Notes: generated from the letters alone by a model not told the origin. 64,000 nucleotides of DNA from Bilabrum cf. latius (GCA_965178125.1 OZ237748.1:1054001-1118000), one strand, 5' to 3'; shown: positions 37,299 through 58,300, counted from the first letter of the stretch. Numbers and translations are program-made.

Positions 37299-37838
37299 CC
37301 CACTGAGTCCAGAGTGGCCACCAGCGTGAAATGGTCGTGCTTGTACAAGGTCCTCCAGATCGGCGTGGGACAGTCGACCTGATACACCGCGTCCAGGTGC
37401 GTGTATGCCTCCTGTGAGCCGCGGCTCAAAGCGTCCGCAACGATGTTGTCCTCGCCAGGAATGTGTTTCACGTGAATCTGCACATCTTGCGTTGTCTGCA
37501 GTACGAAGATAGGGCGAAGTAAGGCTGCCATGATGTGGCTCTTGGGTCTGCCGTAGCGTATCAGCTACACGGAAGCATCATTATCACACCACAAACGCAC
37601 CACACGTCCACGCAGGTGCTGTCGCCAATGCGCCAGTGCCAACAAACATGTTGCAAGTTCTGCCGCCGCTACATCCTTCGCCTCTAGGCGATGCGGCCAA
37701 GTGCCGTGGATGCCGGTGTGCGATGTGATGTTTCCGTCCGTGTCGTGGAGAAGTAGCTCGGCGCCGTAGCCTGTCACCGACGCATCAGTGCGAATGATGG
37801 GACAGTCAATGGTGCCCCGCATCGGAAAACTGCGCCCG
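37154..37838 (-). pseudogene. RNase H half of the family-3 polyprotein, separated by the virophage insertion
   Basis: GRSFP, RTDASVTGYGA, AELA, WCDN, HIPGEDNIVADALSR. Confidence 0.88.
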
Positions 37839-38853
37839 GGGGGGGACAACAGGTGGTGGTAGGTACACCAAGCGTTTAGGACGAGGGCTACGCTACGCTC
37901 GCCCCTCCTTTAAAGGCATATTTAGCAACTCAAGTGTTTCCCCTATAAACCTAAATGATTTCACAGGGGGTTCCCCAAGAACCCCTATAGAACCCCTCTA
38001 TGTACCCATTTTCAGATATAAAATTTACTCCTACGAAGTAGGGGTAAATTGAAGAATTCTAATATTTAACCCCCTTATAAACTCTAACAGCAAAGACAGA
38101 GATGTTTTAGTAAAGTAGGAAAAAATGAAGAAATTAACCAAGTGTCCAAAATATCTCTGTGTTTGCTGTAGGAACGGAAGGATGAATTCCCAAGAGACCA
38201 AGAGACCAACCGAGGATTTCCCCAAGAGAACAAGGTATTTTATCAAGAGACCGAGGTATGTTCCCAAGCGACAAACCGATAAACCGACCGATGAACCGAC
38301 CGATGAACCGACCAAGGATTTCCCAAGGATTTCCCAAGGATTTCCCAAGGATTTCCCAAGGATTTCCCAAGGATTTCCCAAGCGACTAAATTGTTCTCCG
38401 AAGCAACCAAACCGATTACCCAAGAGATGATACATTATAAGGAAAACGAAAACGTATTTTAAGTCCCTTTGGAAAAGTCCCCCAAGATGCTCGGGCTTTG
38501 CCCTCCGCTCTTTTGATATCTTTTTCAAAGATTAAAATTGAGAGATTTTACAGGTCAATTTTAAGAGACTTAGAAAGAATAAATATATTTTCCAATTAAA
38601 ATTAAATGTTGTAATTCCTATGATGCCACCATAAAAATTAAAAGGAAAACGAAAACGTATTTTAAGTCCCTTTCGAAAAGTCCCCAAAAAACTTGTCAAT
38701 TTTACAGGTCAATTATAAGAGACTTAGAAAAAATAAATTAAGTTCCCTATTAAAATTAAATGTTGTAATTCCTATGATGCCACCATAAAAATTAAAAGGA
38801 AAATAAAAAACAAATTATAATTGTTTTCCAATTAAAAACACAAAAATTGATTG
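37839..38853 (+). repeat. Left terminal inverted repeat
   Basis: Reverse complement of 54310-55324. Starts G7ACAACAGGTGGTGG and contains (ggatttcccaa)x6. Confidence 0.95.
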
Positions 38854-39092
38854 AAAAATTTTGACAATATAGGATACAAAGAAATATTAAAATTAATTTT
38901 CCAAGATGCTCGGGCTTTGCCCTCCGCTCTTTTGATATCTTTTTCAAAGATTAAAAATAAATGTTGTAATTCCTATGATGCCACCATAAAAATTAAAAGG
39001 AAAATAAAAAACAAATTATAGAATATTAAAATTAATTTTCCAAGGATTTCCCAAGAGATGATAATTTAAGCCATTCTATATCACTATAGTAA

Positions 39093-39206
39093 ATGAACCC
39101 ATTTTTAAAGGAGTTGATGATAGAGCATATTGTCAAGCAAATTAATCCACGTATTTGGAAAAAATTACACGAAAAACTAAAGGAATACAAGAAGCTCGGG
39201 CTTTGA
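39093..39206 (+). CDS. Small 37-aa hypothetical viral protein
   Basis: Follows the CTATAGTAAATG motif; MNPFLKELMIEH...; TGA stop. Confidence 0.4.
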   Translation: MNPFLKELMIEHIVKQINPRIWKKLHEKLKEYKKLGL

Positions 39207-39237
39207 TATAAGTAGAAGACTATACTATAAAGTACTT

Positions 39238-39522
39238 ATGAAGCCACATACCTACGATTTTGAAAAGGTTGTTGAAAATTTTCAATTTAAAGCACCCTCA
39301 AGACGCAAGAATAAGAAGTATGATGTTTTTGACGAAAATGATGAATATATTACATCGTTTGGTGATAGGCGGTATTAGCAATTTTACGATAGAATAGGGT
39401 ATTACAGCCATTTAAATCATTTAGATACGGACCGCCAATTTAGATACTTCAAACGACACGGTATCGAAGTAAAACCAAGAACCCCAAAGTTCTTCTCACA
39501 TTTTTACCTTTGGAGTTCATAA
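39238..39522 (+). CDS. Tlr6F-like protein, 94 aa
   Basis: SRRKNKKYDV...SFGDRRY*QFYD...HLDTDRQFRYFKRH...KFFSHFYLW matches my recollection of the Tlr6F pattern found in PLVs and virophages. Confidence 0.7.
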
Positions 39523-40053
39523 ATGACACGTCAATAAATACACTAATTCATCAGGATTTAATGTATGTTTCTTACAAACCTTATCCACCCACTTTTTATA
39601 CTAATCAGCGTTTTTTCCCCTATTCCAAAGACGAACTATACAATGTCTCCCGCAGGTTGCTATATCCATTCCATCCGCCTAAAACTAATATGGGTTATAG
39701 TCAATCTTATACGGAGAATGATACATTAAATATATTAACTCAGGGTCTTCATAAAAACGTTTCCGCACGCTTTCACTCATTGTGTGCTATTGCCTATCAG
39801 GACGAATTCCATAACTGTCAAAGAAGTATATTGTTTTATTACGCTTAAATAAGCACACCCAGTGTCCAGAATTTATTTCTTCTTGGTATAGAATGATACA
39901 ACAATTACAACGACTAAATAATCCATCAATACTATTGTACTATCCTAATTCTGTATATGGAACGATGTTTACCGACGTAGGAAGAAACCCCTTAATATTT
40001 GGTGGAGTTTGGAGGAGAACACGAATATCACTATCGCTAAGAGCATAATCCAT
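39517..40053 (-). CDS. Capsid-maturation cysteine protease (adenain/Ulp1-like), 178 aa
   Basis: GHWVCL, YFFDSYG and Y*F*ADGMDIATCGRHC; TGA stop. Absent from the ORF track because of TAGs. Confidence 0.9.
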
Positions 40054-40243
40054 AGATTTATTATAGAATGATATATTGGGGGAGATAAAAGCATCTCTTA
40101 ACCACTATTTAAGCGTAGAAGTATTTCTACAAAATCCGTTTTGGAATTTGTGGATAGCATAAAAGACAATCATTCAAAATAAGTTTTCAACAAAAAGACA
40201 AAACACTTTAGAAAAAAAAAAAACATATAGTAAATACACTAAA

Positions 40244-41146
40244 ATGGCTCATTTTTCTTGGAAGGAAACTACAAAATCAACACCCATCGCATATGACACT
40301 CACGGAAAACGTATTTTATACACGGCGGAAAACACAGACAACCAATTTGGAGATGATAGTATGTCATTTTAGGATTTTCAAGTATCATCTCTTACAGGGA
40401 ACAGATTTCCGCAGAGGAAAATGGATTTATTAGCACGACACTTAATCAAACAGGTCGAACCCCTAGACGAAGACATCAAATATTTGTATGAAAAAGCATA
40501 GGAAAAGAAACATAAAGAGATTACATTAAAATAGGGTGAATTCCAATCACTACCAAATCCAAACGGAAGAGAGGTCATTTTTATCACCGCACCATCAGGC
40601 GCGGGTAAGTCTACTTGGGTTTCCAAATATGCTAAGAATTATCATAGAATGTTTCCGAACAGGAGAATTATTTTATTTTCTCGCGTATAGTAGGATAAAG
40701 TCTTAGATGAAGTGAAAGGACTGAAAAGGATTATTTTAAATGAGGAACTGGTGGTGAACCCGATTGATATTCATTAGGAATTAAGGGACGCCTTAGTAAT
40801 CTTGGATGATATTGATACAATCAAAGATAAAAAATTAAGGGAAGCCCTCAATCATTTACAGGATGAAATATTATAGGTTGGAAGACATAGCAATACTTCT
40901 GTATTAATCACAAGTCATTTAAGTACCAACTATAAAAGTACCCGTATTATTCTTGCGGAAAGTACAAAATTCGTTATTTTTCCGTAGTGTTCATCCGCAC
41001 ATTCTCTAAGGTATTTGTTAAAGAATTATATAGGACTTGAGAAACAAGAAATCTCTAAAGTCTTAAAAATGCCTTCCAGGTGGGTCTGTGTCCACAGGAA
41101 TTACCCGAGGTATTTAATTGGAGAAAGGTAGGCTTACCTTATGTAA
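40244..41146 (+). CDS. DNA-packaging ATPase (A32/FtsK-HerA-like), 300 aa
   Basis: Walker A APSGAGKST, Walker B LVILDDID, GRHSNTSVLITSH. About nine in-frame TAG; TAA stop. Confidence 0.92.
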
Positions 41147-41175
41147 TTTTGGTCAAACTTTTTATAAAAGTTTCT

Positions 41176-41412
41176 TTAAATAATATTCTATTCTCGTATA
41201 TACCGACTTGCTTGAGGTAAACTCATACCAGTCTACTACATCACCATTTTTACAAGTTTATTGCGACGTTTCATTTTCTCAGAAACTTTTCGTTTGGGCT
41301 TTAAACCTTTTCCAACTTTAATATGATGGTTTTTAACTCTATTTAAAGCGTCTTGTTCTTTCTATAGCGCGAGTTGTTTGGTTCTCTATATAATCCACTT
41401 ATCAATATCCAT
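41176..41412 (-). CDS. Small basic viral protein, 78 aa
   Basis: MDIDKWII*...RRNKLVKMVM**TGMSLPQASRYIRE*NII-TAA, preceded by TATAGTATAATG. Confidence 0.65.
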
Positions 41413-41477
41413 TATACTATACACAAACACTTTATTTTTTATTTTTTGGTCAAGCTTTTTATAAAAGCTTATAGTAA

Positions 41478-42659
41478 ATGAAAACTGCTAAAGTGAATGC
41501 TCTTATTCAGCAAGCCCTAGAGAGGGAACTTGACAATGCTAAAATGTTAGATTTACAGGCAAGGGACGACGTAGATTTAGAAACAGAATATAGTGATTTT
41601 ATAAGGAAAAGGGCAAAAATTGAACGATTAAAAGAAAGTGGAAGGTATGGAACTCCAGCGTAGAGAAAATAGGCAGACCAAAGCAACGAGGAAATCATAT
41701 CTAAGTCAATATCTGGTATAATGAAAGGTATTATTGAGGGTAAAAATGTAAGTCCAGCAGTGAAAGCATTGAAGGATTTTGTTGGTAATATCAATATGTC
41801 TCCACAAATGAAGCAACAACTAGCCCGTCAATACGTAAATATTGAGAGATTTCAAAGGAAAGGCTACGAAGGACTGCAGAGAGTTCCAGCTGAAGACAGA
41901 AAACAACTCTTAGAATTAGGGAAAGTTATATAGGAGGCATCCGGACAACGAATACCGTAGGGAATGTTGGGAATTGATTAGTAGCCAACATCTTTACAAA
42001 CACCTGCTCGAACAACAAGAAGAAACACGTTTTCCGCTCCAACACAAGTACAGCTTCCAGAAAAGGGTTCGATTGCGTATAAATAGTTATTGGAAAGAGC
42101 CAGAGAAAGAATACAACAAGACAGACCCTTAACTGAAAAACAACGAATAGCGTGGGATTTAGAATAGGGAAAGAACTTCTCACAAAGAACATCACAGGGA
42201 CAGACAAATATGTTTTAGCATTTTCCAGAGGGTTCAAGTAGTAATGCGTCAAAAACATCAAAAGACTTAGATGCCATATTAGCCGCAGCGAGCAATGAAA
42301 GACCACTACCGCAAGGAAGCACTCCGGGGGCGTGGGACCCAGAAACTGGTGAGTACTATGATATGCCGAGTAGGATAGAAATTGAGCAGGGAATTGGAAA
42401 ACGTGCTACTAGACCTGTGTAGCGATTTACGGGGTTTAGTCCGCCCTATGGAATGTAGTAGCCTGATTTAGAAGACCCACCATCACGCGCAATGACTGTA
42501 GAAGAAAGTGGAAAACCAAAAAAGGGGAAAGGATTACGAGGTGGAAAAAGGATTATCTATGATACAGCAATGAATGTAGCCAAGAAAGTAAAAGGAGCCG
42601 ATAAAGATATTCATCATTAGGTTGCTATGGAACTATTACATCTTTTAGGAAAAGATTGA
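41478..42659 (+). CDS. Hypothetical viral protein, 393 aa
   Basis: Open across many TAG to TGA; TATAGTAAATG start context; basic KKGKGLRGGK tail. Confidence 0.75.
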
Positions 42660-42724
42660 CCAAAACCTCTTATTTACATCTTTTGGCAACCTGATAAAAA
42701 TTATTTCTGTGGATATACTATAAA

Positions 42725-43216
42725 ATGTCAGTTTCAAATCTTCTATCTAAGAACAGTCTAGACCTTATGTCTCAAACTATTACGTGTAATGTTGTGAGTA
42801 GCGACGCAATTAAAGTGTCCGCAATTACTAACTCTACGGGAGCAGTCATAGGCAATCCAAGTATTGAATTCAAAGACGGAGAGCCTTATATGGAGTGGGG
42901 TGAAACTGTTCTACGGTTTGGAAAAAACGGAGCGTCTGCTGGTTGTCAGTTCAGTATGAGCGAAGAAGGAGAAAGATGCGATATTTCACTAGTTGGTTCA
43001 TTCAAGACTTCTCAAGAGGGTGTTGTTGGGCTGAGTGAGGTTGCTGGAGCTACATTGGCTGACGCTTCTACCCCTATTAATACGTCAGCAGAGCGAAAGT
43101 TCAAGGGCGCTTTAGTGTATAATGGAAGCGACAACGATGTCTATGTGGCGATTGGCAGTTCTTCTACATCTAGTTGGAAATCCTTAGTGTCAGGTTCACT
43201 TATTACACCATCTTAA
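42725..43216 (+). CDS. Hypothetical viral protein, 163 aa (S/G/T-rich, possibly fibre or attachment protein)
   Basis: Clean ORF directly upstream of the penton. The function is a guess from position and composition. Confidence 0.7.
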   Translation: MSVSNLLSKNSLDLMSQTITCNVVSSDAIKVSAITNSTGAVIGNPSIEFKDGEPYMEWGETVLRFGKNGASAGCQFSMSEEGERCDISLVGSFKTSQEGVVGLSEVAGATLADASTPINTSAERKFKGALVYNGSDNDVYVAIGSSSTSSWKSLVSGSLITPS

Positions 43217-43272
43217 TTATACTTTAGAAAAGTAATCAAACCCACCCCATAATTATAAACGTCTATAGTAAA

Positions 43273-44382
43273 ATGAGTTCTCCAGACCGATTTTACATTA
43301 CCGCAAACATACGAAATAACGAAGATACTTTCCAACCAGCGACCTATAGCGAAACCCGCAAGTAGCCATTATTAGATAAGGATGTTGGTGATTATACGAT
43401 GTCAGTATTCCGGTTTTCCATAAGCACCAATTCAATACCTTTATGGGTTCCACACATAGAAACCGATAAAGTGAAAAATCCATCTTCAAATCCTAATCAA
43501 ACGGTGTATAGAATTAGCATTACAGATGAAAGTGGAGTACAATTATGGACGGAAAGTATTATATGGAGACCCTAGTTAACAGGGGAAAACCAACCATCTT
43601 TTTCCAATCCTATGTAGTTTGTTCCTTATTATTATATGTATTCCGTGTAGCATTTTGTTGATTTATTCAACGAAACCCTATAGAACGCTTTATCAGCGGA
43701 TATTACATCAGTTCCGGTTTTACTATTCAAAGATGGAAAGTTCAGTTTAGTAGCAAACCCCGATTACGACGAGGAAAACTCAGGACAAAAATTTAAATTA
43801 GTGTTGAATGAAGCCCTTAACGAACTGATGACGGGTTTTCCTATGGAACGAATGGATATCCAAGATGACGACTTATACGCCAGTATTCTATTCAAAACCC
43901 TAGGAACCAATGTTTTATTCGATGATGGCTCTTCTGTTGGAAAATATGAACCTTAGGCATACTTCGAGGGAAACCCAACGGGAGACTACAGATTAATGAT
44001 GACCTAGGAACGAGGGAGTTTAGTGTAGTTTTAGATTTTTCGCGGAATAGTTTTCACATCTTCAAGTCTTCCAGTGAGGAGTGAGGCAATATCCTAGAAA
44101 TCCGCCTATGGACAATCCACAAATACAGATTAGAATTCAGGTTCAGGGACCGAGAGTTTATTAGTGGATATGGACTGTGTATTAGATGACACTGAAACAG
44201 TTAATTAGTAGGTTCTTCAATACCAGCCCCATATTCTCCACGAAATTGATTTTTTAGATACACATTCAGTAGATAGGATTTAGTTTAATCTTTATTGGAA
44301 AGATAATTATTCAAATCTAAGACCTCTTTATTTACGCCACGGAAGTGTGAGTGTGAAGTTTTTAATTTAGAAACGGAAGTGA
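43273..44382 (+). CDS. Minor capsid (penton) protein, 369 aa
   Basis: N-terminal YSETRK*PLLD...DYTMSVFRFSISTNSIPLWVPHI and C-terminal LYWKDNY..LRPLYL..GSVSVKFL are virophage penton-like. Adjacent to MCP. Confidence 0.85.
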
Positions 44383-44487
44383 AATTAGTTTTGTATTACT
44401 TTTATGAAGAAACGAGTTTGCGTTCTTTTCTAAAGAACTGAGTGATAGAATTTTATTCGTTGTATATAATATACAAGGAAAACAAAA

Positions 44488-46257
44488 ATGTCATTGAATA
44501 CCTTTGCCCTTCAGCCAGTCAAAGTATCACCCGCAACACTAGATGTACAACCGAAGCCGTATGAAGTTCAAGAAGGTTATGAGAACCGGACTTTCCGTAA
44601 ATATAACCCCTCCGGGTCTGCCGGAAACTACAACAGCGGGGTCAACTGGAATATTAGTATGCCTTCAGGTGTAGGTTTGTGCCGTCGTGCCTATGTCTCG
44701 TGCCGATTTTCTATCACCTTTTCCGTGAATAATCAAACCGCAGGTGGTCTAGCACCCTTTAGACCAGATTACGATGCTCCACGCTCCTATCCACTTAATC
44801 GCTCCATCGCAACATAGACAGTTGGCATTAATAACCTTCGCTATACCCAGAACAACGGCGAACTAATGGACGCTCTGTCCCATTTACTAGATGATGATGT
44901 CCACCGTGTGAATTGCCTTGATAGTGTGTATAGACGCGATAATGTGCCTTCATACGCGATGATGAGTTAGTCTACGAATAACGCTCTTGCTTCGTATGAG
45001 GACGTGCTTTAGGACCAACCAGCCCGAGGAAGTGGATTTTACAATTTGTATCAAATGGATAATACTGATGTACCCGCAGGTCAAACTCAAAATCGTGTTC
45101 TTGTTTTTGAATGCACTGAGGCGGTATTATGTCCACCTTTCCACTACGAAAGTAAATAGGAACAAACGGCTATATACGGAATTCAAACACTCTCCTTAAA
45201 TATTAATTGGTCTCAACTGAGTAGAACCGTGTGGTCTCGTATTCCACAATAGGGCTTAACTGCTACCATTTAGTCGGTAGATGTCCAAGAACCAGTCCTA
45301 TACCTTGAATAGATTACACCTAAAACAGGATTTGTGCTTCCTAAATAGGTCTCGTATGATATTTTTGAGATGACTTCGTATACCCAAAGTCATAGTCCAA
45401 CAATTGCCGCAGGTACTACAGCAACTCTTTACAATAACAATATTAAGCTTAGTAATTCAGTTCCAAGTCGTTTATTTGTGTTTGCCCGTCGCTCACCTAC
45501 AACCCTTTCAGTAGATTAGGGAAACACATTCATGGCAATTGATGGAATTAGTATAGAGATGAATAACCATAGTGGATTACTCGCCGACGCATCGCCACAG
45601 CAGTTATGGGACTTATCCAGAAGCAACGGACTTGAATAGCAATATAATGAATGGGCTATGCGTAAATTCGGGGATAGGGTGCTATCAGGTGGTCTGTTAT
45701 GTATTGACCCCGCCAAGGACTTAAGCTTAGATGTAGATTAGACGAATGGTAGCAACGGTTCTAATCAATTGTCTATAACCCTACGAGTGAAGAATAATGA
45801 TGTTGTGGACTACGATAATGTATAGTGTGTGGTGATTGGATTATACGAAGGAGTATTAAATTTGATTGATGGGTCTAAGTTCGAGTATTAGCAGGGTGTC
45901 ATCTCAAGGGCAGACGTTTTGTCCGCCTCTAAACTACCCGTTGTATATGAAAGTCAATTATCAGGATTACACGGTCGCGGTCTTGGGAAAAAGATTAGAC
46001 ACGCCTTAAAAAAGTTCGCACACAAAACCGCTGATTGGGTAAAGAAAGGCAATCTCAAAAAAGTATTAAAGGATGGTAAGTAGGTATTTGACACCGCTAA
46101 AATGGTGGGTGAAATGGCTGGTATGGGACGCCAAAGGAAACCCCGAAAGACTACCAAGAAAGGCAGGGGTATGACTGCTGCCGGTTTAACTGGGGCTTCT
46201 CTCACCGGTGGTAAATCTCTTTCTCGCAATCAATTACTCGCAATGTTGTAGCAGTGA
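44488..46257 (+). CDS. MCP: Virophage-type major capsid protein, 589 aa
   Basis: Length typical of virophage MCPs. Motifs DAPRSYPLN, TEAVLCPPF, NIKLSNSVPSRLFVFARR, and a Gly/basic C-tail. Open only with TAG as sense; TGA stop. Confidence 0.88.
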
Positions 46258-46312
46258 ATATGAAAAGGGTAAATCGATAAATATTTGTCTTGGTATATAG
46301 TATATCAAAACA

Positions 46313-46930
46313 ATGTCAGTGTCAACTGCTGTAATGGTTGCTGGGACTTTAGCCCCTTTAGCTTATACAGGAAGCAAGTGTCTATATTCTTGGTGGACGA
46401 AAGACGGAACTTAGAAACAGAAATCGTGCGTGGTTGTTCCAAAAGGAAGCGGTAAAACTACTTTATGTCGTTCCCTAGAAGCGGTGGATAAGGATACGCT
46501 AATTATTGATTTAGACGAGTGTGTAAATGCTCAAATTTCAGGACAGGAAAAGCAAAAGATGGAGAAAATGTTGGTTGACGGTGATGAAAGTACCCACCGC
46601 CTCTTTTATTATTCCCAATCAAGATTAGTGTATGAAAAAATTAAAGCGGATTGGCTCACAAAGAAATCCAGGCGTTTAATTGTTATGGTTGGTTCGTTGG
46701 AATTAGCGAAAGATTTATTTAAGGAAAGTTCAATTTTTGTGTGTGTGCCTTCTCACAGTCTTTTTGAGGAAATCCGTGAAGGGAAAAAATCGGGGGACTT
46801 ATTGTCTGTAGAACGCTCAAGAACGAATTTAATCGCTGGATTACATTAGAGTTAGTACTGTGTCTATTCATCCTTTTAGCAACTGGAGGAATTCGTCCGT
46901 AAAACATTTGGTCTTGGTTCTCGTCTTTGA
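46313..46930 (+). CDS. Second P-loop NTPase/kinase-like protein, 205 aa
   Basis: PKGSGKTT followed by LIIDLDE; hydrophobic N-terminus. Confidence 0.7.
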
Positions 46931-46956
46931 GTTTTTTAAATACAAGCCTATACTAA

Positions 46957-48237
46957 ATGGATAGTTTTTATACACTTAGTGGCGGAAAAATGAATTCTGG
47001 TTTTGTTAAGACGTACATTAGTGTCAAAGAACCAAAGAGTAAAACAACAAGGACATGGAAAAGTGAACATCCTTATTCTAAAGAAGCCCTTGAAAAAGCA
47101 ATTAAGTTTGAAGATGGTGTGCGAAGCACCCCCTCTCGGCGCAGTTAGCTGGCGCAACAGCTTAAAGATGGTGTGGGAACAAAAGGAAAACCAAAAAAGA
47201 AATCCTAGAAGAAATCCACACAATCCAACACACTTCATTAGTATTTAAAAGATGGTCCGCGAAGCCAGCTTAAAGATGGTTTGCGAAGCACCCCCTCTCG
47301 GCGCAGTTAGCTGGCGCAACAGCTTAAGGGTGGAGTAGTGTATGGGAATTCAAACGAAGTCCAGAGAACACTACAGCAATACGGGGATAGAACAATTATA
47401 GCTATGAAAGTGATTAGAACCCCCATTAGTGGCGCGATTAATCGGTTGCTTAACTGGATTACCCTTGGAAAAATGAAAAAGTTAAAAAATAAACACGGAT
47501 ATAATGATTTTTTTCACTTAGCCTTAGAGTTGAACCTTGGAGGTGGAAAAAAGATTTATCTTGAGAAGAATGAGAGGGTTAATTTGTCCTCAAGATTTTC
47601 CACCAACAAGAAAACACAAACTATGGAAGTAAATATCAATGGAAAACCTTAGAAAACAGTAAGGGAATTATATGAAACCACTTTACAGAAAATAGGAGAA
47701 TACAATTTTTATTAGTATCGTGCTTTCTCGTTGAATTGTCAAAAGTTCATTTAGGATGTTCTACGCACAAATGGGTTTTTGACACCACCCTTAAACCAAT
47801 TTATTATGTAGGATGTAGAGAGTATTGCTAAGAACGTATCGGGATTTACTAAGAGAGTGGCTAATGCTGCTACTGATGTGGCTGGTTATTTTTCCAAATG
47901 GTTTGGGAGAGGCTTAGATGATTTACCGGAAGATGTAAGAAACGCTTTAAGAAAAAATTAGGAAAAGCATAAGTAGAACACAGAAAGGGATTTTGGACAA
48001 GATTTTAAGGAAGGTTGGGATTTAGCAACTAAAACAGTTGGAAGACCAATTATGAAAGAAATCCATTCGCATACGAATGACCCAGTATCGGGTATGTATC
48101 TGGAAATATTTGGAGGTCAATGTCAGTGTGAAACAAAACGTTCAAGAGTTATGAAAATGGCGTCCATTTTAAGAGGAAAAGGAATATCCAAGAAGACAGC
48201 ACTTAAGTAGGCTTGGAAAATGTTTGCGTATGATTAA
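46957..48237 (+). CDS. 426-aa protein with a putative permuted papain-fold (PPPDE/LRAT-like) domain
   Basis: FFHLAL...YLEKNE...Y*YRAFSLNCQKFI. One frame across TAGs; TAA stop. Confidence 0.65.
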
Positions 48238-48257
48238 TTTATGATTGTGTATAGTAA

Positions 48258-48899
48258 ATGGCGGGTGTTGATGATTATACCGAAGAACAACTACATTTAC
48301 TGGCTAGTTAGCCACATCAGAGTTTGGGGAAAGACGCTAGACAAGCACTAGCAATTTTGAAAGGATTGAGGAAGCACTAGAGTATAGGGGAAAAGTACGC
48401 TAATCGTGTATATGTAAACCCTTAGGAAAGGGAAATGATGGAAATGCTCGCCGAAAAGACCGAACAAGAATTTGATACGCTAGGAATTGACAAAGATAGT
48501 GATGGTGATTATGACGTGGGTATACTAAAATTCTTATCACCATCACTACACGAGCAACACGACACAACACTTGATGATTTTAATTAGGCAATTCATAGAA
48601 AATATGCGTCAGAACGGAGAGATACTATGCGTGAATTTTTTGATGCTAGAGAGAAGGGAAACAGTTAGAAAGAACTATTATCATCGAGATAGGCTAGAGT
48701 AATGCGAATGGGTGGTGAAGTGCCTGATTGGGGCTCGAGCGAAAGAGCGAAGTAGAGTTTTAAACCACAAAAAACTGGAAAAGGGAGGCGCCGTCGGAAA
48801 AACCCAAAAGCAAAACTAGCAATGAAAATCGCTCAGTAGTTAAGAGGTAGAGGATATGGGAAAAGTGATGCTCTAAAAATTGCTTGGTAGAATGTATGA
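48258..48899 (+). CDS. Hypothetical viral protein, 213 aa, basic C-terminus
   Basis: TATAGTAAATG start context; open across TAG to TGA. Confidence 0.7.
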
Positions 48900-48940
48900 C
48901 TTAAATCTAACTCTATAGTATAATACTATAGAATACAAAA

Positions 48941-49213
48941 ATGACACTCAGTCATTCAGAAAGAAAAGAACAGGATAAGCTGTATGCCCGTGAATACTAC
49001 CGGAAAAACAAGGAAAAACTTGGAGAATAGATAAAGTGTTCCTGTGGTGGTGTATATAAGAAGTACAATAAATCACATCATTGTAGAACCAAAAAACACC
49101 TTGATTGGCTTCAAAAAGAGGAAGACACAAAAAGGGAACAAATTAATATTATGGATGAACTTGATAGTTTGCGATAGGAAATTTAGAGACTAAAGGAAAA
49201 GCAGACTATTTAA
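48941..49213 (+). CDS. C2H2 Zn-finger/Zn-ribbon protein, 90 aa
   Basis: YYRKNKEKL..IKCSCGGVYKKYNKSHHCRTKKH followed by a coiled coil. Confidence 0.75.
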
Positions 49214-49269
49214 TTCAATCTTTTCTAAACACTTTTATGCCGTTCCGCCGGTAAACTGCGGTGCTTTGG

Positions 49270-51111
49270 TCAATCTTTTCTAAAAATTTTCTTCTTACTG
49301 TGAATAATTTGACATTCACCTGATTGCTCCAACTTCATACCCCCAAGGTTCGTTGATAACTTTAGAGGTAATTCTTTCTCACTAATGAAACCATCCGTGT
49401 TGACATAGTGAATGTTTTCAAGATATGGCTCAATCATTTTGGACAATTTACTTCGTCCAAGTCCAGTCAGAAAGGGGCCCATTCTTGCGTAGGCTGTTTT
49501 GTAATCGTACTCTTCGTCATATAGTATACCCGATACAAGTCGTCCAGATGCTTTAGGATAGGCGTTCTTTAATTGTCTAAAATTCATACAATCACCATCT
49601 CGGAGTGTTTTTGTGATTGTGTTTTTCTAACATAGAGAACCCCAAATATTATTTAGTATCTCCTTCGCACACTTCAATCCCTATTTTTTATAACCGTACA
49701 ATCGCTCAATCATCGTTTTGAACAGTCCATTTGCCTTCACCCTTGTTGTCTCATCGTAAAGTAAAGCGTTGGCTTCACCGTCTTCAATCAGAGACACCTA
49801 AGCGCCCGTCTCAATCGCTCGGTTAATGTCATATTGGGTATAATAATTGTTTTTTCTTTTTTGTACTAATTTAGAATTGAGATTTTCAATATGTACCCTA
49901 AAAATGCCGTACGGATAGAACCCACTGGATGGTACTTTAAATTGTACGAACTTACCCCTTCTAACCGGAAATGTAAATGTACCCTTCATAATACTTGGAT
50001 AAAATGAGTTAATATCGTACTGGTATGCGTTTTTCAATGTAGTATTCTTGTTTGCCCAATTCAATCCACCACCTGATGCTCTTGAAATCCATAGTGCTTC
50101 AACTTGGTCAATCGGGTCGGCAGGGTAAAGTTTGGAAAACTTACTGAAATACGACTTTACAAATAGGGATGTTCTAAACATAAATCGTGATAAATCCATA
50201 TATCCACCCGTCTCCTTCGCTAATGCCCTTACATTTTTCATCCGTTCTTCGTGTTTTGTTCTTAGTTCTTCCTTGGACTTGACTTCAAAGATGAATTTAT
50301 CCTTGGAAACTGATGTAATGCCTTCTGATTGATACTCACGGTCTCCATCAAATAGTAAATAAGAATTCTCGGATTGATACAAGCGGGTAATTAGCGTACA
50401 CGGTTCTTTAGACGGCGGTGTAAATAATTCTTTCTAACTAATGGGGGGAACATACTTGTAATGCCCATTTGTTAATGATACAGTTAGAAGACGGTCAAAA
50501 TGAGTTTTTCCAGATGTGTATTCAAAGTCGCCCACAACGTTAATACGTATTTCTAGTTCGTCTTCTATCTCTGGTATTCTTCTGTAATCAACGGGGTCAT
50601 CACGCCCAATTTTCAAGAATTCTTTCAGGTCGGACTATGACATTCTTTTAATAGTAGTTTTCCATTTGCCTTTTGCGTTCTTTACATTTACCTTACGACC
50701 AACTGAAAAAGGAAAAGCCTGTTTTATAGCGTTATATAAACAATCGTTATGTTCGTCAGCACCGCCTTCTGGTTCTGGCTTTCTAATAAGCAGTAGTTCA
50801 AAAGAATTCAATTTTCTATATTCGTCGTCATCGTCGTCTTCGTAGCCCGCCCATAAACTATCTTGATTTTCTAAATCATCTGTAGTAATCCAAGTGCTTC
50901 GTGTTCGCCAACCTGTATCTTGGTAATTGATATTCACCTTAAATTTAAAGTCATCAAACGGATTTTCACCACCATCGTCGTAATCACGAATAAATTCCAA
51001 GACATTTTTTACGGTGATAAGGTCCTCGCTCTCAAATCGCATACTCCATATTGGTTTCCCATTAAGACGCAATTTGGTTCTTTGGGGTTCCGTAAAATCG
51101 ATTTCGGGCAT
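49270..51111 (-). CDS. polB: Protein-primed family B DNA polymerase, 613 aa
   Basis: Four ORF pieces in one frame split by TAG. Motifs YDINSFYPS, KEILNNIWG and YVNTDGF. Confidence 0.92.
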
Positions 51112-51130
51112 TCTATAGTATCTATTATAT

Positions 51131-51162
51131 TATAGAATACGATAATTATTCTTAAGGTACGA
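51131..51162 (-). promoter_or_regulatory. Bipartite putative promoter upstream of pPolB
   Basis: TCGTACCTTAAG-N9-CGTATTCTATA. Confidence 0.7.
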
Positions 51163-51168
51163 ACTCAC

Positions 51169-52830
51169 TCACTTCTCAATTTTACAGAGGAATTTGGAAA
51201 GTTTTCCTTTTTTGTTCTTTGGTGGGTTCTCTTTTATCCATTTTTGAATAGCGATGCTATTCTCAACACTCAGCTGTTTCTGGATTTTCTTATGGACTTG
51301 TTCCGTCGGTGTAATCTCCTTTTCTAATTCCAACTATTCAATCGTTTCCTACTGCTATGCGACTTGTTTCTGTAGTTCTCTAATCTACTCTCGAAGAACA
51401 TCTACCTCGGATTTTGCTTTTTCCATCTCAGCAGAATGACGAAGTGCCTAAAATTTAGATTGGAAGCCTTTTAGTAAGTCTGCGTGTTTCACATTAAATT
51501 CTTGTTTTCTCTATTTGTTCATCGTTGAATGAACACCTACCTCTGACAATAGTGTTTTAATCATAGGTGTACCAAGGTTCTTCACTCTACCGTTCAGTTC
51601 CTGCTTTAGATAATTGCGGAATTCCAAGACTGTCATTTTAAAATCTCTGCCTTCGTCCAGCCACTCTTCTTTTAGAATTTTTAAAACCGGATGTGCGCCA
51701 TCAAGAATTCCTTTGTAAAAATTCTTTGATTTTGGTGCGAATTGTCCTGTAAAGTCTGGTGATGTATCATAGATTTCAACCAATAACATATAAAATGCCT
51801 TAGCCACTTCTGGATTTTCTGTAAAACGTTTTAGTGTTGTAAAGTATTCTTTGTCTCCTTTCTTAGATGTATTCACATCCAAAACACAATATCTACGGAT
51901 TTCCTCGGTGATTTTGATTGGACTATCATTCGTATCAATAATTAAATTGAATGTATTCGGACGACTTTCGGATTTGACAAACTTCTCATTACAGGAAAAG
52001 TGTTTTTCCGTAATAAGATTTCTTAGTGTTGCCTACATGGCGTCCCAAATAGTTGGCGAGGCTTTTGGAATTTCATTAAAATTGACTAATAGTTTCCCGT
52101 CCAGAATTGAGTTGAAGGCGTCGGGTTGAAGCATCTTGTGTGTAAGCGTCTATAGTGTGAGGGTATATCCGAGTAGTTTTCTCATAAGGAAGGTAATAAT
52201 CATCGATTTACCAGTTCCTTGTGGAGATTTCAAATATAGTGCTGTACCCAACTTCTTTCCGCCCACAATAACGTGAGCCAACCACTTCATCACAAAATCA
52301 CACTATTCTTTGTCTTCTGAAGTCCACACCTTCTGGATATGTTCGTAAATCATAGTCGCGCCTGCTTTTGCGTCTTCGGTTAAATCCTCTATGTTTCCAC
52401 AGTTTTCCCGTGTAAGTATAGGTGAACCCATAACGTTAATTGTTTGATTGTCGTAATCAACGGTAGGTGAATTGAATTTTCTTACAATCGTAAATACGTC
52501 GGTATTCTCATTTAAGAACCAGTCTCGTGCTGACCAAGTCTTTACTCTTTTGTTGCCCACAATCGCGTAAATACAGTGTCCCCCAATCAGGTAATTTTCA
52601 GTAATATTTTTATTCGTAAGGAACTACCAGACTGGTTTCTGGGGTTCGTCATCACTTATGTTATTCCGATTTAATTCAGATGCTATTAGAAAATACACCC
52701 CGCCACCTTGTTCGTGGGTGCGGTAGAAGTATTGTTTAAGGTATTGAATACATTCCTCTTGTTTTCCGGCATTACATAGGTCCATAAGGCTTTTTGACGA
52801 ATACGCTTTAGTCGGCAGAGTGAATGACAT
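51169..52830 (-). CDS. Superfamily 3 (D5-like) helicase, 553 aa
   Basis: KWLAHVI..KKLGTALYLKSPQGTGKS, FNSILDGKLLVNFNEI, NLIIDTND; coiled-coil tail. Confidence 0.88.
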
Positions 52831-52844
52831 TTTTGTTGTTGTAC

Positions 52845-52876
52845 TATAGAATACGAAAATAATCCTTAAGGTACGA
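52845..52876 (-). promoter_or_regulatory. Bipartite putative promoter upstream of the helicase
   Basis: TCGTACCTTAAG-N9-CGTATTCTATA. Confidence 0.7.
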
Positions 52877-52887
52877 TACGGGGCATC

Positions 52888-53943
52888 TCAATTTTCTATA
52901 TCCCACTCCAAAATTAAATTAGGAGCAATTTCTTGGATTTTATTCTTTGGTTCCCACGTCCAATGTTCTGGTTCTGGAAAATCTTTCCATTCTATTTGAT
53001 ATTCTGTTTCGTTCTCGGATTTTATTTTTTTTGGGAGAAAGATTGTCTGAGCATCTCGGTTATTGTCCTCATTATCAAAGTCGATAATCTGTAATTCCTC
53101 TTTTGGATAAGCCACTAAATCATCCTAATCCACAACATATAAGGGTGGTTGTCTCGGTCTTAATAATACTTTAGTTATCGTTTTGATTTCTGGATTATAG
53201 CGTAAATCTGAAGCACGGAAATTTCCGGATAATTTTTGCTGTAAATTTGTAGCCTTTCTGGGTTCTTCTAATGGTATACGAACTCTTGTACCCTCTTCCA
53301 ATATATTACAAGCGTCTCCTTTACACTACGTAAAGTCGAAGTGTTCTGGGGGTAAAGGTGGTTCTTCTATATACTTTTCTAGTTGATATTCATTATAGTT
53401 TTCAATGATGTTTGGAAGCATATCCACCCATTCTACGCTTTCATTACCTGTATTTAACTCATTAACGTTCTATAGGGTAAATATGGCTTTTCCCAACGTT
53501 TTATTTAGGTTTTCCACTAATGCCTGTTGTCGGTGGCGACCTGCTTTATTTCTTCGTACAAATACATCGGTCTCTTCTAAATATCTTTGTAAAGCGTTAA
53601 ATTCTTTTCCATTATCTATTTCCAAACGGTGCTGCGGTTTCTGGACATTACCACGATTGAAAATCTTTTTTGATGCCTTTAATACTTCGTTCTAACGCTT
53701 GGTTTTGAGCGGTTCAGCATCGGCCTACTTTGTATGTAAATCAATAGCAGTTAATGCGTATTTATAATTATTGTCGTGGGGTAATGATAATAAATCCATT
53801 TGTACCACTTGGTGAGGTTCTGGTACATTTACGTGGGGTCGATTTACTCCTTTGGGTCGTTTTGGTCGTTTCATTAAATTTACAATACGACTGTTGGGAT
53901 AAATGTTTAGGGATTGTAATATTCTTTCAAAGGCGCTACTCAT
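52888..53943 (-). CDS. Retroviral-type (rve) integrase with C-terminal chromodomain, 351 aa
   Basis: QMDLL, YALTAID, IDNGKEF and LVENLNKTL (DDE); EYQIEWKDFPEPEHWTWEP (chromodomain). Confidence 0.92.
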
Positions 53944-54008
53944 TTGCTATATAGTTGTATCATTCTCCTTACTTTTGTAAAGTAGGGAAAATAATTCTTG
54001 GGAAAAAA

Positions 54009-54248
54009 TCATTTGGTTTTGGTACTTTCGTGCCATTCAACTACAATTTGACTTAAATCTTTAGCTTCCTCAAAGTCAGCAAGCAGGTCATCGTCATCAT
54101 CATAATTAATCCAAATAATAGTCTTTGTAAATTCAAGGTACTTTTTGGCCATATCGTATGCTTCTCGTGTTGTAATAAACGGGACTGATTTAAGACATTC
54201 TTTGGTCGCCAAGATGTAATTCTCGAGTTCCTTTTGTGATTTTGCCAT
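54009..54248 (-). CDS. Hypothetical viral protein, 79 aa
   Basis: Clean ORF behind the bipartite upstream motif. Confidence 0.65.
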   Translation of the reverse strand: MAKSQKELENYILATKECLKSVPFITTREAYDMAKKYLEFTKTIIWINYDDDDDLLADFEEAKDLSQIVVEWHESTKTK

Positions 54249-54262
54249 TTATGTGGTTGTAC

Positions 54263-54294
54263 TATAGACTACGTAAGTTATGCTTAAGGTACGA
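54263..54294 (-). promoter_or_regulatory. Bipartite putative promoter upstream of the 79-aa ORF
   Basis: TCGTACCTTAAG-N9-CGTAGTCTATA. Confidence 0.7.
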
Positions 54295-54309
54295 CATTTC
54301 CACTTTAGG

Positions 54310-55324
54310 CAATCAATTTTTGTGTTTTTAATTGGAAAACAATTATAATTTGTTTTTTATTTTCCTTTTAATTTTTATGGTGGCATCATAGGAATTACAA
54401 CATTTAATTTTAATAGGGAACTTAATTTATTTTTTCTAAGTCTCTTATAATTGACCTGTAAAATTGACAAGTTTTTTGGGGACTTTTCGAAAGGGACTTA
54501 AAATACGTTTTCGTTTTCCTTTTAATTTTTATGGTGGCATCATAGGAATTACAACATTTAATTTTAATTGGAAAATATATTTATTCTTTCTAAGTCTCTT
54601 AAAATTGACCTGTAAAATCTCTCAATTTTAATCTTTGAAAAAGATATCAAAAGAGCGGAGGGCAAAGCCCGAGCATCTTGGGGGACTTTTCCAAAGGGAC
54701 TTAAAATACGTTTTCGTTTTCCTTATAATGTATCATCTCTTGGGTAATCGGTTTGGTTGCTTCGGAGAACAATTTAGTCGCTTGGGAAATCCTTGGGAAA
54801 TCCTTGGGAAATCCTTGGGAAATCCTTGGGAAATCCTTGGGAAATCCTTGGTCGGTTCATCGGTCGGTTCATCGGTCGGTTTATCGGTTTGTCGCTTGGG
54901 AACATACCTCGGTCTCTTGATAAAATACCTTGTTCTCTTGGGGAAATCCTCGGTTGGTCTCTTGGTCTCTTGGGAATTCATCCTTCCGTTCCTACAGCAA
55001 ACACAGAGATATTTTGGACACTTGGTTAATTTCTTCATTTTTTCCTACTTTACTAAAACATCTCTGTCTTTGCTGTTAGAGTTTATAAGGGGGTTAAATA
55101 TTAGAATTCTTCAATTTACCCCTACTTCGTAGGAGTAAATTTTATATCTGAAAATGGGTACATAGAGGGGTTCTATAGGGGTTCTTGGGGAACCCCCTGT
55201 GAAATCATTTAGGTTTATAGGGGAAACACTTGAGTTGCTAAATATGCCTTTAAAGGAGGGGCGAGCGTAGCGTAGCCCTCGTCCTAAACGCTTGGTGTAC
55301 CTACCACCACCTGTTGTCCCCCCC
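54310..55324 (-). repeat. Right terminal inverted repeat
   Basis: Reverse complement of 37839-38853. Confidence 0.95.
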
Positions 55325-58300
55325 GCCCGCCTTTGCGCTGGATAGCCACCTGGAATCCCTCGAGGATTTCCCCAACTGTGAAGCCACCCTTGGACACGAA
55401 GGAGGTGGGGACCCACACCTCACCTGGTCGTGACCGGCTGGCCTACTTGTGAAGGGCCCAGCCCTTGGCGTCATACAGGGGACGTAGAGCACCGCGCATA
55501 CCATAAAGTGCGCCCGACAGGAAGGACAACTTGCCGACCAAGGTCTCAAAGGTAGACAGCAGCATCCCCTTCGTCGTGAGTGCCTCGTGCAGTCTGCGCA
55601 GGACGTCGGTGGCCTTGTCCTTAGGGCACCGCACCTCGTGTTTGATCAAGTCGTAGGTGAGGCCCAAGTACTCGAACACCGGGGCTGGGGCCCCTTGCTT
55701 CAATGCTTTCGAGATGCTGACGGGGAAGTTTGTGGAGTCCAGCTGCCCCATGGCTCGAATTGCCCATGCATCGACTTCGTGATCTCCGCCGAGGCAGGCA
55801 AAGTCATCTACAAACACCTCATTTTCGACCTACCAATGGCGGGACTAGTCTTGGGCCGTCTTGACCTGTCCCGTTGTCGTGCTAGCGGCAGGCGGGGTGG
55901 ACGTTGCTGACGAGTTCGCCTGGGGCGCCTGGTCCGTCGTGCTGGATTGGGCGTTGGCGTGCTGCTGCTGCCGGCGTCGTTGCTTCTGCTTGTGTCTCCG
56001 TCCGGGTCGCATGGCCCTGCCAATGGACTGCTCCTCGAGGGCTTGGGCCAAAGCCGAACTGATCGTAGTTGCGAACGCGGGAGATGATGAGCTGCCCATA
56101 GAGAGCCTGAAGTCTTGCACGATGCGCCCGTCGGGCAGCTTGATCAGGTTGTATTGGAGATCCTCCACTGCCACCGGCAGGACCCGAAAGTACGAGGAAA
56201 TGTCGACGACGTATCCGCTGGCACGCTTGGGGCAGGATCGAACTGCTGCGGCTGCCGAGCGCAGCACGTCCATGCTGCTCGTCTGCTGCACAGGCGTGGC
56301 TGCACTGTAGTCGATGGCCTTGTTCAGACCGGTACGCTGGCCGTTCACCTTGAGTGAGGAGTCCTGAAGGAACCGTAGCTTTGTCGAGTCCTTCTTGGGG
56401 ATCACCAGCGGCCGGGCCCGGGCTGTGTCGAAATCTTTGGGTGACACGAAGTCACGCTCGCCAGCCCGCATGGAGCGCCCGATCTCGCAGGTGATCTCCC
56501 ACTTTTCTTCCGGAGACAGCTTACGGTCCTTGTTGTCTAGATCGTGCTCTTTGGGCACCTCGTCCACGATGGCTAGGGGGCAACCATAGTTCAGTGCTGC
56601 CAGTACACGCTCGACTCGTGGGAGGGCTTTGAACTCGGCAAGGGACGGGGCCTTCCTCGGTGTGCGGCCGCCAAACAGAACCTCCCGCCGAGTCCGCAGT
56701 GTTGCAGTCTAGCGAGGCACCTTGTCGAAGTACTTGCGTGGCGTGAATGCCAGCGGGTCTTCGTGAACCTTCAGGTGGATCCGCTCACGGTCCCACGTCG
56801 CAGCTGGAGCCTCCACGAATTCGCCGGGACAGTCTCTGGTACGCTGGTGATCGTCCTTTCGCTGGATGAAGTCCTCTACGGAGGGTGCTGTCGTCCCTGC
56901 CCACTCATGGCTTGGATCCGGAGCTGGATATGCCCAGTCAACGAATGCTGGAGAGATGTCCGTCCTACCTGGCAGCCTCGTGGATGACGCCGTGGGCGGC
57001 CGCTGCGGTCGCTTAGGGCGCGCTAGGGCCACCAGGACTGGGTGAAGCGCGGGCGTTGACGTGACAGGTGGTGTGGAAGCAGCACACGCGTCCGATGTGG
57101 TGGTAGTCTGCGTACGCCCCTGCGGCAGTGTTGGTGTTGGAGTGCTGGGCTGGCTCTGACGTGACGTACCTCGTGGGGGAGGGTCAGGTGAAGGCTCCTT
57201 GGACTTCCTGGTGGAACCCCCGTCCTGCCGGTCCGCACGCTGGTGCTGGCCACCTTGCTGGCCTGCACCGCCACGTCCACGGCCTCGACGGTGTCGACCT
57301 CCGCCACGATCGGTACTGGGCTGGTCGCTGTCGCCCCCACTGCGCCTGGAGCCTCCACTGCCCCCGCCTCCACTGCCCCGGCCTCCACTGCCCCCGCGGG
57401 GGTCGAAGTGACGGGACAGTGCTGCTCGACGGGACGGCGCCTGCATGTCAGCCTGGACTCCCTGTAGCAGTCCGCGCACGAGGCCAGGTTCGCCTGATCT
57501 GCATGCCTCAGTGGCCCACGGATGCAGCAATTGTAGGAGACGCATGCAGTCGCCAGAAGAGCACGAAGGAATCTCATTCCCAACAAGGTCACGAATCTCA
57601 ACGTCACAGCGTTCGCCTGTATGGCGCCAAGCATGGGAGGAGAGCATCTCAAAGGCTGAACTTCCGCGTGGTATCACACACACAGCGGCAAACACCACCT
57701 CTAGTCGGGACGCCGATGCAGATGATGCCCCGGAAGCACTAACCAAACGAAGAAAATCATTGCGAACCTGCCCCAGGGTTTTCCAATCGGGCACTAGTGA
57801 TGCTGGACACGACCACGAGCTGCTGCCCTGCGGCAACCAGGACGGCAAGGACGCCGCCGAATGCACGCAAGCAGCGCGCACGAGCACACAGCCTAAAGCA
57901 AAGGAAATAGCCGAGTAAATAGTGCATAGTAACTCGCTAGATGGCACCTACTTTTCTCGTCCGCCTGCAGCAGACGACTCCGAGTTGGACGCATCGAACT
58001 TCCCAAAACTAGCATTGCTCATCGGCAGAGCTGCATGAAGCCGGCTCGTGAACGAGAAAATAGCCGATGCAATCTTGGCTCTCGTCACGGCCTGACCAAA
58101 CAGAGCACGGGCCAGTTCTGCAGCGAAATCGCGGCCGCTAGCGTCCAAATGAAGCGCGTCAGCCTAGCAAAACCGCGGCATGAACGCGGATTGGCGAAAG
58201 ATCGAGGTCAACGTTGCCAAGAAATCATCAGAAAACCAATTCTGCATTCGAATTGCAGCGATTGAAGGTGCAGAGGCCTCACGCTACAAAATCTCCACTG

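Follow-up and report, generated by a model that had tools for sequence, protein, structure and literature searches.

A probable virophage genome, written with UAG as glutamine, in the GC-rich nuclear DNA of a eukaryote

The DNA described here is a 64,000-nucleotide stretch from Bilabrum cf. latius (GCA_965178125.1 OZ237748.1:1054001-1118000), hereafter the window, which contains an AT-rich island of 17,486 bp at positions 37839-55324. This element is very probably a complete virophage genome, assigned to the Maveriviricetes by its capsid genes and resident in the nuclear DNA of a GC-rich eukaryote in which UAG specifies glutamine while UAA and UGA remain stop codons. With TAG read as sense the element contains 16 genes, comprising 14 open reading frames (ORFs) of at least 90 amino acids and two small ORFs (78 and 79 amino acids) located behind a shared upstream motif, and coding sequence occupies 91.8% of its unique region.

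Under the standard code the longest ORF of the element that begins with ATG encodes 163 amino acids and 14 of the 16 genes are interrupted, the pattern expected if the element were a decayed, dead insertion whose TAGs are nonsense mutations. Treating TAG as sense, however, yields ORFs of 300, 393, 369, 589, 205, 426, 213, 613, 553 and 382 amino acids. The number of codons contained in ORFs of length 150 or more is 1211 under the standard code and 5394 with TAG freed, compared with 2997 and 1750 when TAA or TGA, respectively, is freed instead. Across the 16 genes (4725 codons) there are 111 in-frame TAGs, spread over 14 of the genes, and no internal TAA or TGA, even though both of these codons are more common than TAG off frame (270 TAA and 278 TGA vs 161 TAG). 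Ten genes end in TGA, six in TAA and none in TAG. As the element, at 37% GC, has no in-frame TAA and six of its genes terminate with this codon, TAA remains a stop; a code in which UAA is also read as glutamine, as in Amoeboaphelidium and Streblomastix, was rejected on the same counts. With UAA and UGA kept as stop codons and UAG read as Gln, as set out below, the code corresponds to NCBI table 15. Decay is likewise contradicted by the lack of frameshifts relative to homologs, by the identity of the two terminal inverted repeats (TIRs), by variation between copies that is mostly synonymous, and by a TAG kept at the same column in a lineage that is only 58% identical. The encoded proteins are also of similar length to their relatives, the major capsid protein (MCP) having 589 residues against 587, 596 and 588, and the helicase 553 against 538, 534 and 546. 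A dead insertion is therefore considered extremely improbable. An earlier reading of the window, made from the sequence alone, had claimed that the genes are whole only with TAG as sense, each closing on TAA or TGA, and had named ordinary decay as the condition to be checked; the counts bear out the claim and reject decay.

Comparison with homologous sequences indicates that the amino acid specified by TAG is glutamine. The most informative codon, at 39679-39681, encodes residue 165 of the protease. The catalytic signature of CE-clan cysteine proteases is the succession His-Asp-Gln-Cys, in which the oxyanion hole is formed by the Gln. Residue 165 lies after the invariant Gly103-His104 pair and nine residues before the invariant Cys174-Gly175. 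The corresponding column is Gln in all 25 independent homologs (25-49% identity), which were drawn from NCBI, JGI, ENA and Logan. The same holds for 80 of 80 IMG/VR loci, where the codon is CAA in 54 and CAG in 26; these loci, virophages that share the protease and were read with the standard code, constitute the IMG/VR comparison set used throughout. Two further TAGs fall on conserved glutamine columns, one in ORF9 (at 47809; Gln in 9 of 9 IMG/VR loci) and the other in the MCP (at 45739; Gln in 34 of 39). An all-codon decoding based on 2850 standard-code ORFs from the 80 loci assigned 52 of the 56 well-sampled sense codons correctly, and returned Gln for TAG over 38 sites taken together. Retranslation with TAG as Gln had been proposed as a check in the sequence-only reading.

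The possibility that TAG is a sense codon meaning Glu or Lys, or is ambiguous, is very unlikely. In its favour, E and K are the next commonest residues after Q at TAG sites in relatives, the protease sums are close once column 165 is left out (4.47 for Q, 3.62 for K), and codes with UAG=Glu and UAG=Leu are reported elsewhere (PMC11687900). The three conserved glutamine columns argue against this proposal, as does the decoding, in which D and E score below Q by ∼0.45 per site over the 38 sites. In addition, none of 40 aligned Glu positions of the window's helicase is 'Q' in a relative that is 90% identical.

Several observations weigh against the assignment of TAG to glutamine. Among 144 distant MCPs (∼28% identity) the 15 columns that carry TAG in the element's MCP favoured no amino acid, all sums being negative. 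Several TAGs occupy columns at which F, K, M, I or D prevails in distant virophages (34/41, 33/41, 35/41, 32/38 and 6/6, respectively). On average Q scores −0.39 per TAG site, although the rare glutamine codon CAG is likewise negative, at −0.25. Finally, close relatives in the databases have Q at most TAG sites, but this is probably the product of automatic translation of TAG as Gln and not independent evidence; the database entry for the protease of the window itself has Q, so the gene caller of that collection evidently translates TAG in this way where doing so opens frames. The TAGs at columns other than Q are read as showing that TAG resides mostly on sites that are variable in the element's lineage.

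The view that the host itself reads TAG as sense is well supported, though short of proof, by the retroelement sequences of the window. Six host retroelement ORFs (5098 codons) contain 26 in-frame TAGs and no TAA or TGA, while off-frame TGA outnumbers off-frame TAG in them by 183 to 55. A caution is that these ORFs had been preselected as free of TAA and TGA. An opposing explanation is that the host uses the standard code and that the virus alone is recoded, as in code-15 phages, with a suppressor tRNA supplied by the element's helper. This proposal is in keeping with the frequency of TAG, which is about fourfold higher in the element than in the host ORFs (23.4 vs 5.5 per 1000 codons), and with the window offering no housekeeping host gene that could be checked. 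It is difficult to square with the in-frame TAGs of the host retroelements, in particular with a host ORF of 1919 codons that spans reverse transcriptase (RT)-like and RNase H domains and contains 11 TAGs, and no tRNA gene was found in the element or in the 64,000-nt window. Recoding of the virus alone is accordingly regarded as highly improbable. Two points nevertheless weigh against a recoded host. First, long ORFs arise by chance in the GC-rich flanks, where freeing TGA produces even longer ORFs than freeing TAG. Second, the evidence comes from retroelement ORFs, as the window contains no conserved housekeeping gene. Eukaryotes in which UAG alone is sense and UAA a stop, a property displayed also by the element, have been reported: UAG is Gln in Iotanema spirale, Protocruzia and some phyllopharyngean ciliates, Leu in the rhizarian exLh and Ser in Scotinosphaera (PMC11687900, PMC5304391).

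Codon usage offers a route by which the element may have acquired the code. Its glutamine codons are CAA (118), TAG (111) and CAG (46), while those of the host ORFs are CAG (151), CAA (45) and TAG (24). TAG accounts for 40% of the glutamine codons of the element, including that of the catalytic-site Gln, probably because AT pressure favours the silent change from CAG to TAG. Through translation by host ribosomes, the genes of the element would have drifted into the code of the host.

The boundaries of the element are sharply defined. Its GC content is 37.3% compared with 59.2% in the flanks, and in 1-kb windows from 38001 to 55000 the fraction ranges from 0.33 to 0.41, against 0.50-0.70 outside. 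The left TIR (37839-38853) and the right TIR (54310-55324), each of 1015 nt, are 100% complementary, and they are flanked by two copies of a 5-bp target site duplication (TSD), GCCCG, at 37834-37838 and 55325-55329. All of the structural features claimed from the sequence alone, namely an AT-rich island of 17.5 kb, 1015-bp TIRs, a 5-bp TSD and about 16 genes, were recovered on recomputation. Within the left TIR there is an 11-bp tandem repeat (38312-38382, 6.5 copies), and a degenerate 154-bp repeat (38552-38904) starts inside the left TIR and extends 51 nt beyond its inner end.

In-silico excision of the element and one TSD copy restores a single minus-strand host ORF, running from 59684 to 36437, which is the 1919-codon ORF with 11 TAGs described above. 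The upstream part (55325-59684, minus strand), containing the RT region and nine in-frame TAGs, is paralogous (E 2e-29) to an RVT_1-bearing ORF at 27978-30956, and its frame joins that of the downstream part (36437-37838, minus strand) once the element is removed. The downstream part contains an RNase H-like domain (RVT_3, 24.8 bits, cut-off 21.6). As the RT-like part lies upstream and the RNase H part downstream of the element, the insertion fell between these two parts of a retroelement polyprotein. The element's flanks are rich in retroelements.

The uninterrupted target was also found in public sequencing data. Six public runs, from two studies, contain ∼80% of the element's sampled words, and four of these were compared in detail with the element and its flanks. 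In two of the four (X1 and X2, from two studies) there are contigs in which position 37832 is joined to 55324, skipping 17491 nt. This gap equals the element plus one TSD copy, and the uninterrupted target therefore exists as DNA. The empty-site contig of X2, which is 5651 nt long, matches the window over 533 and 577 nt on either side, with one and two differences. A point against this interpretation is that the empty-site contigs could be a paralogous copy of the retroelement and not an allele of the locus. The copies of the element in X1 and X2 are ∼0.75% diverged (35 differences in 4687 nt), and more-diverged pieces are numerous in the same runs; the matching pieces of X1, taken together, fall into likeness bands of 129, 46, 27 and 14. 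The element is a member of a multi-copy family. There are 484 variants among the copies, and the 40 best supported were scored, each change alone and with the variants drawn from mixed copies. Of these, one is intergenic, three fall in a doubtful N-terminal extension of the protease ORF, and the 36 in secure coding sequence comprise 24 synonymous and 12 nonsynonymous changes. In the ATPase gene synonymous variants outnumber nonsynonymous ones by 17 to 6. The occupied and empty sites, the perfect TIRs and the intact genes make the element a candidate active element. No RNA data set is listed among the runs that contain it. It was also observed that the X1 and X2 copies lack 55 nt at 49214-49270, where the ORF11 and pPolB genes converge. 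Run X7 has almost no cover of the element or its flanks. A high-depth contig of X2 and X7 shares with the element two matches of ∼20 nt only (39061-39081 and 40156-40181), separated by 2241 other letters, and is probably unrelated sequence.

The capsid genes of the element match virophage families. The MCP (44488-46257, plus strand; 589 amino acids, 15 TAGs) displays matches of 87.8 bits to Sputnik_MCP_1st and 95.9 bits to MCP_V20_C, both with cut-offs of 27, and aligns with Sputnik V20 at an E value of 3.7e-31 (111.8 bits), compared with 27.8 bits for the MCP of Mavirus. It has 2274 homologs at E≤0.001, but beyond its own small group no full-length homolog exceeds ∼32% identity. The penton, or minor capsid, protein (43273-44382, plus strand; 369 amino acids, 15 TAGs) matches the Pfam family V18-19 (35.8 bits, cut-off 27) and the Sputnik structure 3j26_N (E 2.7e-12). 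The protease gene (39517-40053, minus strand) encodes 178 amino acids from the start codon common to its homologs and contains five TAGs. The protein has no Pfam match, and a sequence search of the PDB returned chance WD40 repeat matches only; its identification as a CE-clan cysteine protease derives from the predicted fold and the homologs. An AlphaFold model built from 26 sequences (predicted local distance difference test score 92.7) matched exclusively CE-clan cysteine proteases in the PDB, namely adenain, Ulp1/SENP, African swine fever virus pS273R and poxvirus I7L. The best match of the model among viral models was Sputnik V9, with a template modelling score of 0.85, an E value of 2.5e-16 and 35% identity. 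With a 9-sequence alignment as query, 473 relatives of the protease were retrieved from IMG/VR. The packaging ATPase (40244-41146, plus strand; 300 amino acids, nine TAGs), in which the Walker A motif reads GAGKST, has weak Pfam AAA matches below cut-off; it is matched by standard-code ORFs of 45 of the 80 IMG/VR loci, the best at 215 bits with 41% identity over 303 amino acids.

Protease, ATPase, MCP, penton and ORF9 are common to the element and the IMG/VR virophage contigs. The published definition of a virophage requires a virophage-like hexon, an ATPase and a protease, with a penton and a double-stranded DNA genome of 15-45 kb expected (PMC9952930). The element encodes the hexon, the ATPase (by a surrogate test), the protease and the penton in 17,486 bp, as judged with Pfam, IMG/VR and structural matches. 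Other searches gave no relatives: none was found when IMG/VR was scanned with the MCP alignment, the helicase alignment or pPolB, and an annotated phage collection contained no MCP match.

The genes on the right side of the element, all on the minus strand, are of a different kind. The gene for pPolB, a family B DNA polymerase of the protein-primed kind (49270-51111; 613 amino acids), matches DNA_pol_B_2 at 23.5 bits, the cut-off being 25.8, and phrog_1907 ('DNA polymerase') at E 6e-13. The D5/primase-type superfamily 3 (SF3) helicase (51169-52830; 553 amino acids, 10 TAGs) matches DUF5906 (57.2 bits), a VapE-like family (25.1 bits) and phrog_1156 (E 4e-19). The integrase (52888-54036; 382 amino acids, six TAGs) contains an rve domain (38.3 bits) and a C-terminal chromodomain (Chromo, 26.4 bits), both above cut-off. 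A sequence search of the PDB gave no match to pPolB. None of the 80 IMG/VR loci matches pPolB, and one of the 80 gives a marginal match to the integrase. A point against the assignment of pPolB is that its Pfam match is below cut-off; moreover, searches of Pfam, PHROGs and the PDB gave nothing for its first ∼320 residues, the polymerase matches beginning near residue 320-347. Pfam, PHROG, structural and IMG/VR matches thus uphold the gene content read from the sequence alone, that is, the four virophage core genes together with pPolB, an SF3 helicase and a chromodomain rve integrase.

The element contains 26 copies of the motif TATA(G/C)TA. Ten of these fall within the 40 nt that precede a start codon on the sense strand, against an expectation of 0.42. 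In the window as a whole there are 28 copies, compared with an expectation of 4.1. The exact motif lies 8-27 nt before the ATG in 10 of the 14 larger genes; the protease, MCP and pPolB genes have TATAATA, and the integrase gene is the only large gene that lacks an upstream motif. The shared motif suggests coordinated activation of the genes by a single transcription system. If Mavirus and Sputnik are a guide, this system may be the late transcription machinery of a co-infecting giant virus, Mavirus genes being reported to carry the late promoter of their helper CroV (PMC8547959). If this machinery is the driver, the giant virus would itself have to be compatible with the code of the element. 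Expression of the integrase would follow another route from that of the motif-bearing genes, and the enzyme is likely to have inserted the linear, TIR-bounded genome with production of the 5-bp duplication, as described for Mavirus and Polintons (PMC8547959). Helper dependence is suggested by the promoter-like motif; a point against this scheme is that no helper virus, transcript or particle has been seen. The 'TCTA' late-promoter motif of type-4 endogenous Mavirus-like elements (EMALEs) was not recovered upstream of the genes, although five upstream regions happen to read TCTATA.

The combination of genes raises the question of whether the element is instead a self-synthesising element of the Maverick/Polinton kind that spreads alone, independently of any giant virus and without a defensive function. 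The pPolB, rve integrase, TIRs and 5-bp TSD that it shares with Maverick/Polinton elements (MPEs) are hallmarks of Polintons (PMC8547959). The many diverged copies in the sequencing runs, the location of the element inside another mobile element and the lack of a helper virus in evidence would also fit independent spread. In contrast to Polintons and Polinton-like viruses, however, the capsid genes match virophage families, both in Pfam and in Sputnik. The virophage type of MCP, penton, protease and ATPase is the published criterion that separates virophages from Polinton-like viruses (PMC9952930). The position of the upstream motif points in the same direction; it is so near the start codons that there is no space for a TATA box ∼30 nt before the start of transcription, an arrangement that looks viral. 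A Polinton-style element is thus unlikely, and the searches favour the virophage side of the choice between virophage and Polinton or Polinton-like capsids that had been proposed as a check. The virophage reading is retained in what follows.

Sequence comparisons indicate that the capsid module of the element has its relatives in Sputnik and in virophages from lakes or metagenomes, while the replication and integration module is of the Mavirus/Polinton kind. Among named references the MCP, penton and protease are nearest to Sputnik, although the identities to Sputnik and metagenomic virophages are low (26-28% for the MCP, ∼40% for the protease and ∼41% for the ATPase). Sputnik encodes a tyrosine integrase and is not known to carry a pPolB. 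The likenesses to Mavirus and to the EMALEs of Cafeteria burkhardae (PMC8547959) concern organization: AT-rich islands in a GC-rich host (17.5 kb here, 5.5-21.5 kb for EMALEs), TIRs (1.0 kb here, 0.2-2.3 kb in EMALEs), the TSD (5 bp here, 5-6 bp in Mavirus and MPEs), a pPolB, a primase/helicase and an rve integrase that bears a CHROMO domain, a promoter-like motif upstream of the genes, and an association with retrotransposons. There are also clear differences. The promoter-like motif of the element, TATA(G/C/A)TA, differs from that of EMALEs, which is TCTA in an AT-rich context (PMC8547959), and the genes of the element, unlike those of EMALEs, are written with TAG as Gln. In Cafeteria the Ngaro retrotransposons are mostly inside the virophages (PMC8547959), whereas here the virophage is inside the retroelement. 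The core proteins of EMALEs are reported to be monophyletic with those of Mavirus (PMC8547959), whereas the capsid module of the element is not of the Mavirus type. The description 'Mavirus-like' in the sequence-only reading consequently applies to the replication and integration genes and to the ends of the element, which do parallel Mavirus, but fails for the capsid genes, given the fourfold gap in MCP bit scores reported above and a protease whose best named match is Sputnik V9.

The remaining genes of the element are mostly of the plus strand. ORF1 (39238-39522; 94 amino acids, one TAG) has a weak match to DUF5754 (26.0 bits, cut-off 27.4), while ORF4 (41478-42659; 393 amino acids, 13 TAGs), ORF5 (42725-43216; 163 amino acids, no TAG) and ORF10 (48258-48899; 213 amino acids, nine TAGs) have no family match. 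ORF8 (46313-46930; 205 amino acids, four TAGs) contains a P-loop-like GSGKT sequence and matches AAA_24 weakly. ORF9 (46957-48237; 426 amino acids, 11 TAGs) is conserved in 10 of the 80 IMG/VR virophage loci, and ORF11 (48941-49213; 90 amino acids, three TAGs) has a Cys/His-rich translation. The two small ORFs are on the minus strand. One (41176-41412; 78 amino acids, five TAGs) lies 9 nt behind the motif and has weak matches from 5 of the 80 IMG/VR loci; the other (54009-54248; 79 amino acids, no TAG) lies 18 nt behind the motif and overlaps the start of the integrase gene in another frame. A doubtful candidate ORF of 37 amino acids (39093-39206, plus strand) is found 8 nt behind a TATAGTA motif. 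By eye, ORF9 and ORF10 (46957-48899) have similar C-terminal stretches (…LRG.G…K..ALK.AW…), and the N-terminal part of ORF9 is internally repeated, its two units having a TAG at equivalent positions.

Three features of the surrounding host DNA may be recorded. The retroelement ORF copies at 55325-59684 (minus strand) and 60167-64000 (plus strand) are near-identical, inverted and arranged head to head, with TAGs at the same positions; the virophage is in one of them. A 268-bp satellite at 12310-17980 (21.2 copies, 98% matches) displays a GC skew of ∼+0.3 and an AT skew of ∼−0.4. A host ORF of 650 codons at 21450-23399 (plus strand) encodes two WW domains (62 bits) and a poly-Gln tract rich in CAG and CAA, and contains 78-bp tandem repeats and one in-frame TAG.

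Public protein collections point to a second virophage lineage, 56-58% identical to the element in MCP and helicase, that is interrupted by stops in the same manner. The 90%-identity cluster of P0002, which is 58% identical to the window's MCP, contains full-length proteins of 587 amino acids, to which other pipelines add pieces of 109-150 amino acids; the contigs reach 15-17 kb. The 109-residue pieces stop immediately ahead of residue 110, a position that aligns with TAG-110 of the window, and the MCP fragments P0013 and P0092 stop exactly before the column of TAG-384. Helicase pieces similarly stop before a 'Q' of P0006. Proteins of this lineage (P0002, P0006, P0013, P0092 and P0189-P0204) occur in several public collections, both full-length and as fragments. 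The prediction that standard gene callers would miss such an element is therefore true of some pipelines, which cut the relative's MCP to the short pieces described, but not of others, which report it at full length with Q at the TAGs. A broader proposal, for which the chances are judged slightly short of even, is that these viruses form a clade confined to UAG=Gln hosts, with at least two lineages that both have in-frame stops at common columns, and in which dependence on TAG, extending even to the catalytic-site Gln, locks the virophages and their helper giant viruses to such hosts.

A literature search, which covered sources other than subscription journals and supplements, found no virophage with UAG-only recoding. 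The novelty suggested by the sequence-only reading was overstated, as recoded Polinton-like viruses are in print. Endogenous Polinton-like viruses of Streblomastix strix are reported to use their host's UAR=Gln code (PMC10120064). Like the element, they are small double-stranded DNA viruses integrated in, and written in, the variant nuclear code of the host, which in their case was interpreted as a sign of long association (PMC10120064). They differ in that both UAA and UAG are Gln (table 6) and the capsids are Polinton-like (PMC10120064), while the element uses UAG alone and has a virophage capsid. In addition, the presence of an ochre-suppressor tRNA in one virophage clade has been interpreted as a hint that the hosts are recoded (PMC6905037).

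The element joins a capsid module of the Sputnik/lake type to a replication and integration module of the Mavirus/Polinton type, and provides a natural example of codon capture, from CAG to TAG under AT pressure. It also predicts that there is a giant virus able to tolerate UAG as glutamine. Genomes of this kind are broken into fragments by gene callers that apply the standard code alone. Virophages and giant viruses are known chiefly from metagenomes, in which they come without a host. A virophage that is readable only under UAG=Gln bears the mark of its host throughout its genes, and this signature could connect uncultured virophages, and in turn giant viruses, with the rare eukaryotes that use this code. 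If the proposed clade is indeed confined to such hosts, the genetic code would label uncultured virophages and giant viruses with their host in the manner of a barcode, and would also hinder their passage into protists that use the standard code.

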